DNA of 38,465 bases. Source: Sediminibacterium ginsengisoli. GTDB lineage: Bacteria; Bacteroidota; Bacteroidia; Chitinophagales; Chitinophagaceae. The translations under genes and the position numbers were made by a program. Location of the stretch: NCBI GenBank assembly GCA_945860335.1, contig CAMAQW010000001.1, forward strand, positions 1 to 38,465. Direction: 5' to 3'. Below, one piece after another: positions 19,984 to 23,020 of the stretch (the stretch's first letter is position 1; each line of letters starts with the position of its first letter). The notes under the pieces were generated by a model. The model made no database searches, was not told where the DNA came from, and worked only from the letters and a program-made list of their open reading frames with translations.

Positions 19984-20019
19984 AAAAAAAGCCGCTCCTT
20001 ATGGAAGCGGCTTTTTTTT
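19984..20019. terminator. Bidirectional intrinsic terminator (PUL end and tRNA-like RNA end)
   Basis: A7-GCCGCTCC-TTAT-GGAAGCGGC-T8; U tails on both strands. Confidence 0.88.
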
Positions 20020-20020
20020 G

Positions 20021-20184
20021 CTGTAGGGGGAGGGATCGAACCTCCAGAAGGCAGTTAGCTATAACACAAAGTTCAGTGGTCGACCCTGGTCGCTTATTGC
20101 TAAGCGGCTCTATGTTACGTTTATCCCGTTATCCTCACCCTCGAGACAAGAGGGCATGTTTGCCTAATATTTCATCACCCCACA
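20021..20184 (-). ncRNA. tRNA-like RNA (anticodon GUC/Asp) with 92-nt structured variable-arm insertion
   Basis: Minus strand: acceptor TGTGGGG/CCCTACA plus G73; T8 G9; D arm ATG-AAATATTAGGCAAA-CAT; anticodon arm CCCTC-TTGTCTC-GAGGG; insertion 20137-20046; T arm GGAGG-TTCGATC-CCTCC. CCA not encoded. Confidence 0.85.
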
Positions 20185-20219
20185 ATAAATAAGAACTGTT
20201 TTGATACTCATTAACAATG

Positions 20220-20335: not shown

Positions 20336-20812
20336 ATGAACCCAAAATTGAATCTTGACAAACTCGATTTACAGATTATTCAGGAAATGATGGAGGATGC
20401 TGAAATTTCCTACGCCGATTTAGGTAAAAAACTCTTTGTGTCGGGTGGTACCATCCACGTGCGTATAAAAAAATTAGAAGAACTGGGTGTAGTAAAGGGT
20501 AAAAAATTATCTGTCGATTTAAAAGAACTCGGTTACGACGTAATTGCTTTTATTGGCATCTATCTCGAAAAAAGTTCGCTGTATGATAGTGTTGCCAAGG
20601 AATTAAAAAAAGTACCACAAATTGTGCGTTTAAATTATACCACCGGTAATTATAGCATGTTTGCAGAAATTGTTTGTAAAGATATTCAGCAGTTGCGTTA
20701 TGTTTTACATGATGAGCTGCAAAAAATAAAAGGTATTGAAAGAACAGAAACATTTATTTCACTCGAAGAAAGTTTGGTGCGCAGTGTAGTGGTTTCTCCA
20801 ACTTCGGAATAG
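20336..20812 (+). CDS. asnC: Lrp/AsnC family transcriptional regulator, AsnC-like
   Basis: LDKLDLQII, SYADLGKKLFVSGGTIHVRIKKLEELGVV HTH, YTTGNYSMF, LQKIKGIERTETFISLE closely resemble E. coli AsnC motifs. Confidence 0.85.
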   Translation: MNPKLNLDKLDLQIIQEMMEDAEISYADLGKKLFVSGGTIHVRIKKLEELGVVKGKKLSVDLKELGYDVIAFIGIYLEKSSLYDSVAKELKKVPQIVRLNYTTGNYSMFAEIVCKDIQQLRYVLHDELQKIKGIERTETFISLEESLVRSVVVSPTSE

Positions 20813-23020
20813 TTATTTTTCACGCACATTAAAAGCGTCTCTTAATCCGTTTCCAAGTAAATTAAATGCAAGCACTAGTATCATAATGGCAATGCCAGGT
20901 GCTAGTGCAAGTGCCGGATTGTGGGTGATAATAAAATTATAATTTTCTTTAATCATCAGGCCCCAGCTGGGTTGTGGCGGTTGAACACCCACGCCTAAAA
21001 AACTTAAGCCTGCTTCAATTACAATCGCAGATGCAAAATTACTCGCAGCAATTACGAGTACGGGTCCAATAATATTGGGTAAAATATGTAAAAATATGGT
21101 GCGTGTATTGGAGTAGCCAAGTACCTGTGCCGCTTCAATAAATTCTCTGTTTTTAATGGCCATTACCTGACCGCGCACAAGCCTTGCAACATTCACCCAC
21201 ATGGTTAATCCAACTGCAATAAACACTTGCCAAAATCCTTTTCCTAAAACAAGTGTAATTGCAAACACTAGCAGTAATGTTGGAATACTCCAAATAACAT
21301 TGATAAACCACATAATGCATTCATCTATCCAGCCTCTATAAAAACCGGCTAATGCACCCAGTAAAATGCCAATAGTGAGTGATAGTAAAACAGCAATCAT
21401 GCCAACACCAAGGCTTACTCTTACGCCAATAATGAGGCGGCTTAACATGTCCCTGCCAAACTTATCGGTACCTGCGTAATAGGTTTGTTTAATAACTGGT
21501 TCTTTGGCAGCTAAGCTTAGTGGCATTACACCAGCTTCTGTAATGCCTTCATCAATATATTTCTGGTAATAAATAGAATCACCTTTTATGTGGTAAGAGG
21601 TGATTGGAATAAAGGTATTCGCGTCCTCTTTGCCATTTAATAGCCTATCAAAAAATGAAGCATTTGTTGTTTGTCCTATTCGTTTTACTTGAAGTAATTG
21701 AATCGTAAATCCAGGCTTCATGCTTCCTATTTCAGGAATCATGCGGTTGGCGTTTGGCGAATGTTCGGGTGCTATAAAATAAGCAAACACCGCCATCAAA
21801 AAAGCAGCGGTAATAATATAAAGTGATACACTTGCAGGTTTATTTCGTTTTAATTTTGTAAAAAAACGATCTGGTTCATTTTTAGTTACGGTGCGACCTT
21901 TCCATTTGTAAGATCCAAATGTGCCAAACCAACCAGCCACCACCGTATATAAAATATGAAATGGTTGCATGAATAAAAACCACCAGAGTAACTTTTGTTG
22001 TTTAAAAAATTTGGCAGCTGCATACATAAATGGAAGTTCAACAAGTGTTTTACAACCTATAAAAACAAACCAGTTATTGATATTACCAGTTTCTATTAGG
22101 TTAACGGGGAGGTACACCAATAACGAAAAATTTACCAGGTACACCAGCAGTAATATCCAAAAAATAATTTTGTCTTGATAGCCAAGCGCCTTACTAGACC
22201 AGCGTATCCGCTGTTGTATAAATAAATCTAACGTCGCACTTGGGGCCGTTGTAACCACTGTATCCTGCGCGTATAAGTATCCAATTTTTTCTGGATACGA
22301 TTTTTTCATTTTATGCATCAGTAGCATATCGTCGCCACTGGGTAAATGATCAATGCCACTAAATTTTCCAACGCTTTCAAAGGCTTCTTTACTATAACAC
22401 AAATTAGCGCCGTTGCAGAGTGTGTGTGAACCAGAGCCAACAGCTGCTGCCGTAATACCTTGTAAACTAATAAAATCTAAAACCTGAAAAACCGATAAAA
22501 AGCTTCCGGTATTTTTATAGCTTACTGGCGCCGCAATCATTACGCAGTTATGCTCCTGAATATATGCATCATAACTAGCCAGCCAATTATTGGTAAAACT
22601 GCAATCAGCGTCGGTGGTAACAATCCATGGATGATTTGCCTGTTCAATGGCAATTTCTATGGCTCTTTTTTTATACGCTACTATATTTTCATCTTTTGTA
22701 AAATCTTGCAGGCGCAGTAATCTTACATTGTTATATTGTAAAGCGATTGATCCAACAATGTTTGCGGTTTCATCTTCCGAAAAATCATCTATTACAATCA
22801 ATTCAAATAAATGAGAAGGGTAGTTTTGCGCCAAAATACCCGCTATGCAGTTTTCAATGTTAGCCGCTTCATTGCGGGCCGGAATGACAATCGAAAACTT
22901 AGTTTGAGGTGTTTTGCCCTTAGCCACAAATGCGCGCAGGTTCCAGTGCCCCCTTGTATACAAGGCCATTAATACGCCGTAGGCGGCCAATAAGCAAATG
23001 GTTACCGTAAAAAGGTACAT
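20813..23020 (-). CDS. Fusion: GT2 glycosyltransferase (N-terminal) plus OppC/DppC-type ABC permease (C-terminal)
   Basis: SIVIPARNE, IDDFSED, TTDADC, SGDD, QRIRW and WKGR (GT2); then KRNK, GTDKFGRD, EFIEAAQVLG, HILPN, LSFLGVGVQPPQPSWG, LLGNGLRDAF (OppC). Confidence 0.85.
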   Translation of the reverse strand: MYLFTVTICLLAAYGVLMALYTRGHWNLRAFVAKGKTPQTKFSIVIPARNEAANIENCIAGILAQNYPSHLFELIVIDDFSEDETANIVGSIALQYNNVRLLRLQDFTKDENIVAYKKRAIEIAIEQANHPWIVTTDADCSFTNNWLASYDAYIQEHNCVMIAAPVSYKNTGSFLSVFQVLDFISLQGITAAAVGSGSHTLCNGANLCYSKEAFESVGKFSGIDHLPSGDDMLLMHKMKKSYPEKIGYLYAQDTVVTTAPSATLDLFIQQRIRWSSKALGYQDKIIFWILLLVYLVNFSLLVYLPVNLIETGNINNWFVFIGCKTLVELPFMYAAAKFFKQQKLLWWFLFMQPFHILYTVVAGWFGTFGSYKWKGRTVTKNEPDRFFTKLKRNKPASVSLYIITAAFLMAVFAYFIAPEHSPNANRMIPEIGSMKPGFTIQLLQVKRIGQTTNASFFDRLLNGKEDANTFIPITSYHIKGDSIYYQKYIDEGITEAGVMPLSLAAKEPVIKQTYYAGTDKFGRDMLSRLIIGVRVSLGVGMIAVLLSLTIGILLGALAGFYRGWIDECIMWFINVIWSIPTLLLVFAITLVLGKGFWQVFIAVGLTMWVNVARLVRGQVMAIKNREFIEAAQVLGYSNTRTIFLHILPNIIGPVLVIAASNFASAIVIEAGLSFLGVGVQPPQPSWGLMIKENYNFIITHNPALALAPGIAIMILVLAFNLLGNGLRDAFNVREK

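Follow-up and report, generated by a model that had tools for sequence, protein, structure and literature searches.

Decoding tRNA-Asp carries a purine at position 37 and a short variable loop. The sections of PMC9976931 and PMC3367201 that deal with tRNA identity are the source for the aspartate and amidation determinants used here; the former includes G1-C72 and G10 among the bacterial aspartate determinants. A nucleotide at position 20a is a GatCAB antideterminant. Class II tRNAs such as tRNA-Leu are characterised in the same sections of PMC9976931 by a 3-bp D stem, A15-U48, A20a, a helical variable arm and a 7/5 branch. Allo-tRNAs and SelC* tRNAs, as PMC5389517 presents them, belong to other phyla; they possess a long variable arm, G73 and, in some allo-tRNAs, the anticodon GUC, but their branches are 8/4 or 9/3, their D arm resembles that of tRNA-Sec and their anticodons vary. 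The tRNA-Asn of tRNA-dependent asparagine synthesis (ND-AspRS and GatCAB; transamidosome) is marked by U1-A72 and G73, and the portion of PMC4206432 concerned with this pathway counts Bacteroidetes among the genera that have AsnRS, GlnRS and GatCAB but no asparagine synthetase.

The window, i.e. the whole 38,465-nt stretch of Sediminibacterium ginsengisoli DNA analysed here, encodes a tRNA-like RNA (Table 1) that joins the aspartate set G34, U35, C36, C38 and G73 with the amidation mark U1-A72 on a body of the tRNA-Leu type. While the RNA has this aspartate set in common with decoding tRNA-Asp, it lacks both G1-C72 (A72 in 162 of 164 unique complete RNAs) and G10 (A10 in 210/231), which the cited sections of PMC9976931 list, and it has a pyrimidine at position 37 and a 92-nt arm instead of the purine and the short loop. 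In common with tRNA-Leu are the class II features named above, including A15 with U48 in 218/231 RNAs; tRNA-Leu, however, has A73, whereas the RNA has G73 (163/164), GUC with C38, pyrimidine 37 and an arm that measures 39–135 nt in almost all copies and contains internal loops and junctions. Unlike tRNA-Asn, with which it has U1-A72 and G73 in common, the RNA displays an Asp anticodon on a class II body, is predicted not to decode and has its own gene under AsnC. Position 20a is filled in 231/231 RNAs, and the host tRNA-Asn likewise has U20a in 5/5 genomes. Finally, its 7/5 branch and nearly fixed GUC set it apart from the allo-tRNAs.

When homologues were searched for with a pattern in which the anticodon loop was left free, GUC was recovered in 233/236 matches, a pyrimidine at position 37 in 234 and C38 in all 236, and position 33 was not U in 12; much of the sequence of the D and anticodon stems is still prescribed by the patterns, which therefore miss relatives that have diverged further. 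AUC or UUC replaced GUC at three loci, all of which lack the distal loop described below. An 8-bp acceptor stem was rejected, the base preceding U1 being free (C 110, T 92, A 28, G 1; n=231). ARAGORN called no tRNA anywhere in the window, and Rfam gave no match to the RNA at gathering score, with ribozymes, riboswitches, Y RNA and tmRNA included; its weak matches fell mostly on the terminator hairpin and none reached the gathering score. It is very improbable that the RNA is an ordinary decoding tRNA-Asp with a harmless insertion: its full cloverleaf, canonical T arm and CCA end would suit such a role, but the window genome also encodes a normal tRNA-Asp(GUC), positions 37 and 33 deviate as described, and the RNA co-occurs with gatB (see below).

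Table 1. Features of the tRNA-like RNA and its surroundings in the window. Pairing counts for P1 and P2 refer to 222 of 226 unique arms.
Feature	Position	Strand	Remarks
tRNA-Asp(GUC)-like RNA, 164 nt	20021..20184	minus	7/5 cloverleaf, U1-A72, G73; only C74 of CCA encoded
D arm, tRNA-Leu type	20156..20175	minus	3-bp stem, A14 A15, extra A20a
Anticodon arm	20138..20154	minus	GUC at 20147-20145, U37, C38
Variable arm, 92 nt	20046..20137	minus	between anticodon arm and T arm
P1, 4 bp, GAGG/CCTT	20136-20133/20051-20048	minus	pairs in 221-222/222 arms, up to six pair types
Bulge, 4 nt	20132-20129	minus	4 nt in 180/222 arms
P2, 3 bp	20128-20126/20054-20052	minus	pairs in 183, 211 and 218 of 222 arms
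Proximal internal loop GAUAAA x CUAA	20125-20120 x 20058-20055	minus	
P3 helix, fixed length	20059..20119	minus	10-bp part 20117-20108/20071-20062
P3 conserved U-G and A-U pairs	20112/20067, 20111/20068	minus	9-10 nt from proximal loop
P4 hairpin, GCAA tetraloop	20091..20106	minus	optional insertion
P5, covarying 3-bp stem and 9-nt distal loop GRUNGACCA	20074..20088	minus	
T arm, canonical	20029..20045	minus	
Intrinsic-terminator-like hairpin, bidirectional	19984..20018		directly after the RNA
Lrp/AsnC-family regulator, divergent	20336..20812	plus	best NCBIfam model AsnC, under its cut-off

The initial annotation had proposed, from the window alone, that the arm folds into a three-way junction with named helices and a GCAA hairpin, and had called for a covariation analysis. 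In isolation the arm is only mildly stable, and not clearly beyond chance (z −1.59; 15 of 200 shuffles equally stable; mean z −2.0 over the 40 junction-type arms measured out of 154), so that the case for the fold is made by its homologues. In 32 RNAs of the junction type, selected out of 95, pairing held in 95.8% of 1583 cells, compared with 42–56% in slid-partner controls, and 24 of 50 base pairs varied on both sides. RNAalifold recovered every arm helix unprompted. The proposed helices and the hairpin thus lie where they had been placed, and their structure is conserved. When the whole RNA is folded as a single sequence, its ensemble gives P1 and P2 a pairing probability of only 0.03–0.07, and it is covariation that carries these basal helices. 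Some details of the proposal had to be redrawn. The A-rich internal loop is present, but P2 had been overlooked, which divides it into a 4-nt bulge and GAUAAA x CUAA; the 10-bp helix stands, except that its top two pairs are weaker (paired in 78 and 81 of 92) and were both left open by RNAalifold; and the 3-bp stem of the second arm covaries, whereas its inner two G-C pairs never do (G-C in 30, unpaired in 2, n=32), so a 9-nt loop on a 3-bp stem describes this arm better.

Two alternative pairings of the junction GAC with the loop, as a hairpin or as a pseudoknot, were rejected, since P5 covaries in the register first proposed. The cores of the 11-nt tetraloop receptor, the kink-turn and the hammerhead, whose signatures were judged by eye, did not fit. 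An origin of the GCAA hairpin in 16S helix 6 was likewise rejected, as the likeness does not go beyond the common GCAA cap; in the 5 genomes compared, the arms do not track the 16S of their own genome.

A set of 328 unique arms (159 from genomes, 96 from metagenomes and 73 viral) distinguished what is kept in the arm from what is optional. The three-way junction with P4 was found in 154/328 arms and in none of the 73 viral ones; P4 varies from 10 to 45 nt in length and ends in a GNRA loop in 72 of the 92 parsed. The P4 hairpin is a stabilising side branch or cap without a fixed partner and not the functional core of the arm, and the emphasis originally laid on the GNRA hairpin and the junction, a lineage-specific insertion, was misplaced. 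The most widely kept part is the proximal internal loop (UAA with GAnA in 223 arms, UAA with AAnA in 65, a GAA type in 29 and others in 11), which short arms, down to ~40 nt, retain as their sole module. This loop resembles the UAA/GAN motif, which is defined by a trans U-A pair and a cross-strand A stack and, according to the part of PMC2615604 that describes it, makes A-minor contacts as an internal loop akin to GNRA, although many such signatures do not fold in this way: in both, a conserved UAA faces GAN-A beside a helix, while the arms have A for G in 65/328 and GAA for UAA in 29, and the closing pair would be C-A.

The distal loop GRUNGACCA was present in 277/328 arms, including 69/73 phage arms, and was closed by G-C in 186/187 arms of the first arm set. 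Among the parsed arms, a stack of U-G and A-U pairs lay at a distance of 9–10 nt from the proximal loop in 258 of the 264 loop-bearing ones versus 1 of 24 loop-less ones (15 arms that were too short and 25 unparsed arms being left out), and because this spacing is fixed in the loop-bearing arms, P3 would act as a ruler. The arm accommodates insertions on both flanks of the distal loop. At four further loci, extra hairpins at the P1/P2 bulge mark a second insertion site. The invariant GAC of the distal loop raises the quite improbable alternative that the loop shows an Asp codon which masks the GUC anticodon in cis or in trans, in the manner of a T-box specifier loop. In its favour are the fixed length of P3 and the anticodon loop, which deviates in 1/147 RNAs with the distal loop versus 5/15 without it; but the masking helix would have 3 bp only, with no covariation by which to judge it, it would compete with AspRS, and the loop-less copies may be relaxed paralogues.

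The RNA is transcribed with its arm in place. In 4/4 freshwater RNA runs, contigs, which drop rare forms, covered the RNA including the arm without joints, and one contig identical to the window spanned 20030–20193 unbroken. In run X1 the summed contig depth was 16,000–77,000 over the RNA versus at most 46 on the flanking genes, a depth that cannot rank genes because relatives are pooled. One contig of run X19 ended at U1 and continued into adapter, and the contigs ended in C, CC or CCA at the other side. A deep contig of the same run equals the window over 20020–20078 and has two leftover letters, which fit the encoded CCA of a relative to the last base, where the window DNA reads CAA; this suggests that CCA is added to the window RNA, a strain with an encoded CCA being expected to look alike. 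Among the window (position 20020) and its homologues, the base following G73 was C in 163/164 RNAs, with the full CCA encoded in 23/231 only, and we take the near-fixed C to suggest a processing constraint.

The lack of joints agrees with the initial view that the domain is not an intron, and its suggestion that a selected RNA module sits on a tRNA scaffold is borne out by the covarying fold and the conserved modules. For an aptamer or a catalytic element, which it had also listed, nothing was found in support. Conserved unpaired nucleotides in two loops and the AsnC context (see below) could be cited for an Asp/Asn aptamer, a ribozyme or an excised intron, yet we consider this explanation hardly credible in view of the joint-free contigs, the lack of an Rfam match, the absence of the junction from 174/328 arms and the ~40-nt arms that keep nothing beyond the proximal loop. 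The other roles it had offered, a docking site or a ribosome-exclusion device, are plausible.

By BLAST, the RNA was present in 30/36 genomes of the genus and in 7/24 other genomes of the order. The core pattern matched ~2600 stretches in the genome collection, with titles naming Chitinophagaceae, Saprospiraceae, Cytophagales and some Flavobacteriales, as well as ~140 viral contigs; INPHARED phages and PLSDB plasmids gave no match to the RNA. At 13 loci the genes form tandem arrays of two to three copies, often with long loop-bearing arms mixed with short loop-less ones. Phage copies often lie near tRNA genes (30/58 loci). Two phage tRNA-like genes have the same core and GUC loop with an ordinary 21-nt variable arm, and this short-arm form is possibly a reduced or an ancestral one. 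In the literature searched we found no description of the RNA; subscription journals and tRNA database labels were outside its scope, and tables in PMC4206432 and PMC5389517 may list such loci.

In order to relate the RNA to the genes of asparagine metabolism, 150 genomes of the class were taken in one draw and searched with a covariance model of the 5' core of the RNA, with 33 candidates scored per genome. At least 26 clear carriers (E ≤2e-11) and 2 weak matches were found; kin genomes in this tally are not independent observations, so that p values drawn from it overstate the association, and it counts one unpublished genome as a non-carrier, on which by itself no claim is made. All 26 clear carriers, and all 28 with the weak matches, contained gatB, while the RNA was found in 0/39 genomes without gatB. 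A clear copy occurred in 0/22 genomes with asnA or asnB; the genome of one weak match (E 4e-6) has AsnA. That the RNA was found only with gatB, and that clear copies were not seen with asnA/asnB, fits tRNA-dependent asparagine synthesis. In the 57 genomes with GlnRS, which do not need GatB for Gln, the RNA was found in 14/19 with gatB versus 0/38 without it. Within three families gatB and the RNA were jointly absent. Two counts weigh against a carrier role: the RNA was not found in 83/111 gatB genomes, and it was found in 12/92 gatB genomes that lack GlnRS.

Four of the five exceptions, with GlnRS and gatB and without the RNA, have a GatB frame of 1110–1120 amino acids, and the fifth is a 210-contig assembly. 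The long frame of one of them (G387; L319:2304-5624), located behind gatA, encodes a 1106-aa protein in which GatB is joined to a second AspRS of the bacterial type. The family with this fusion has GlnRS and AsnRS and lacks the RNA, and the fusion is possibly a protein-level alternative for asparagine synthesis. The window genome (76% complete) contains gatA, gatB, AspRS, AsnRS and GlnRS, and gatC, asnA and asnB were not found in this incomplete assembly; gatB and gatA are on separate contigs, with no gatA adjoining gatB. His31, the discriminating motif of AspRS, was absent alike from genomes with the RNA, genomes without it and genomes lacking AsnRS (29 of 31 genomes parsed), and so did not separate discriminating from non-discriminating enzymes.

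An AsnC homologue was present beside 79 of 102 bacterial loci, upstream and divergent in 97 of the 98 loci with a match; by arm type, it was found in the flanks of 59/63 junction-type, 12/18 loop-only and 8/21 loop-less loci, versus 0/53 viral loci. In E. coli, according to the part of PMC8707732 consulted, AsnC switches on asnA at low asparagine. Promoter scans gave nothing above chance. Beyond the regulator, at 20813–23020 on the minus strand, the window encodes a 735-aa protein with a family 2 glycosyltransferase domain and an oligopeptide ABC permease (OppC) domain.

AsnRS was absent from 3/26 carriers, so a hand-over of asparagine to AsnRS cannot be general. These genomes would be accounted for if the RNA were a non-substrate scaffold, decoy or sensor for AspRS/GatCAB that aids the ordinary tRNA-Asn or buffers Asp charging, and so would the replacement of the RNA by the GatB-AspRS fusion, the very deep RNA contigs and the phage copies without AsnC; the tRNA of the Thermus transamidosome, in the portion of PMC3367201 that treats it, is a precedent for such scaffolding. 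We nevertheless judge this explanation unlikely, as a mere scaffold has no obvious need for U1-A72 together with G73 and a CCA end, nor for the near-invariant GUC. The ordinary tRNA-Asn route may itself be open, because the host tRNA-Asn keeps U1-A72.

Self-complementarity of the arm tip was observed in several forms. The distal loop of the window contains a perfect 8-nt palindrome (20085–20078, minus strand), which the initial annotation had overlooked, and such a loop was found in 85 of 277 loop-bearing arms; the others have a wobble or mismatch centre, without compensatory change. In viral arms, a palindrome of at least 6 nt was centred 4–9 nt past the distal loop in 55/69 cases versus 9/69 at the mirror position, which served as the control, a shuffle expectation of 24.8/65 being inflated by short composition-preserving shuffles. 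Twelve different central hexamers were represented among these palindromes, and 13 palindrome labels required at least 22 changes on a 64-row tree that is poorly resolved and whose alignment overlaps the palindrome in some rows. It is in the phage arms only that a palindrome is kept through compensatory changes. The second palindrome was found in 0/85 arms with the perfect window-type loop and, among arms with A at the loop centre, in all 19 viral and 5 metagenomic ones; 15 bacterial arms with an A or G centre have none. In nine bacterial arms without the loop, the tip is occupied by a different 8-nt palindrome; most loop-less arms carry no palindrome. Loop and palindrome types follow lineage, and in the distal loop changes at the centre and a change of G to A occur, by which self-pairing is weakened or lost.

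The DIS loop of HIV-1 is 9 nt in size. As with the palindromic loops of HIV-1 DIS and oskar covered in PMC7357161, the phage arms have GC-rich palindromes of at least 6 nt, and the DIS hexamer GUGCAC itself occurs in 9 of them; in contrast to those loops, the phage palindromes lie in a junction strand and not always in an apical loop, and the dimer is here predicted from sequence. Pairing between two molecules is the simplest explanation because the A-flanked six-mers cannot close a hairpin and the longer palindromes keep the would-be loop self-complementary. Cofolding gains (−13.1 versus −7.4 kcal/mol; −16.5 for the window arm) are a consequence of the palindromes and add no evidence of their own. 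On these sequence patterns the viral-arm palindromes point to RNA dimerisation, in which the private palindromes of phages could favour phage-phage pairing, and host copies could be paired with through the shared loop.

Alternatively, the RNA may be an asparagine carrier whose arm acts as a monomer, combining a steric block to the ribosome with a protein site; GRUNGACCA, as a T-loop-like or bulged-A hairpin, would bind GatB, AsnRS or a hydrolase, and only phage copies would dimerise. The distal loop is invariant save for two positions and shows no palindrome covariation, its G-to-A variant is easier to reconcile with a non-canonical pair of the T-loop kind than with Watson-Crick pairing, its spacing from the proximal loop is fixed, and phage copies keep it beside their own palindrome, all of which this alternative accommodates. 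It leaves unexplained the mutual exclusion of the perfect-palindrome loop and the extra palindrome, as well as the 8-nt palindromic tips of the loop-less arms, and its protein partner is only putative; we consider it rather doubtful.

The reading that we prefer, and to which we give an even chance of being right, takes up the observed fold, modular conservation, unspliced transcription, identity marks and gene co-occurrence together: the 92-nt domain belongs, as its conserved variable arm, to a tRNA-Asp-like RNA that is transcribed and not spliced, and it likely serves as a ribosome-excluding docking and dimerisation scaffold for a carrier on which GatAB(C) likely converts Asp to Asn. AspRS would charge the RNA with Asp through GUC, C38 and G73; GatB would accept the Asp-RNA through U1-A72 and amidate Asp to Asn, and the Asn would be released for AsnRS. 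The divergent AsnC may turn the RNA on at low Asn, as E. coli AsnC does asnA. The long arm, U37 and the relaxed position 33 would keep the Asn-bearing GUC from decoding Asp codons. Within the arm, the UAA/GAN-type proximal loop may fix the angle by A-minor docking and the fixed-length P3 may set the distance, while the self-complementary tip could pair with a second copy. AspRS is a dimer, and the resulting two-headed RNA could span it. The lack of G1-C72 and G10, the filled position 20a (which the host tRNA-Asn has too), the uninformative AspRS motif and the AsnRS-less carriers weigh against an Asp-to-Asn carrier.

An extension of this carrier reading is possible, although we put it forward tentatively and do not think it likely. 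The RNA would be a dedicated, non-decoding tRNA cofactor in which two Asp-charged heads are held by their paired arm tips and bring AspRS and GatAB(C) together as an asparagine synthetase on an RNA scaffold, in place of asnA/asnB; phages with self-selective palindromes would supply or redirect Asn, and lineages that lack the RNA would have the GatB-AspRS fusion as their alternative.

If the carrier reading is true, a large part of the aerobic Bacteroidota would make asparagine on a separate tRNA-like cofactor that has been missed by standard finders, and the retention of gatB in genomes with both AsnRS and GlnRS would be explained. The arm would then show how a structured domain is presented on a tRNA in nature, and in the phage palindromes covariation would, as it rarely does, signal a functional homodimer of tRNA-like RNAs.
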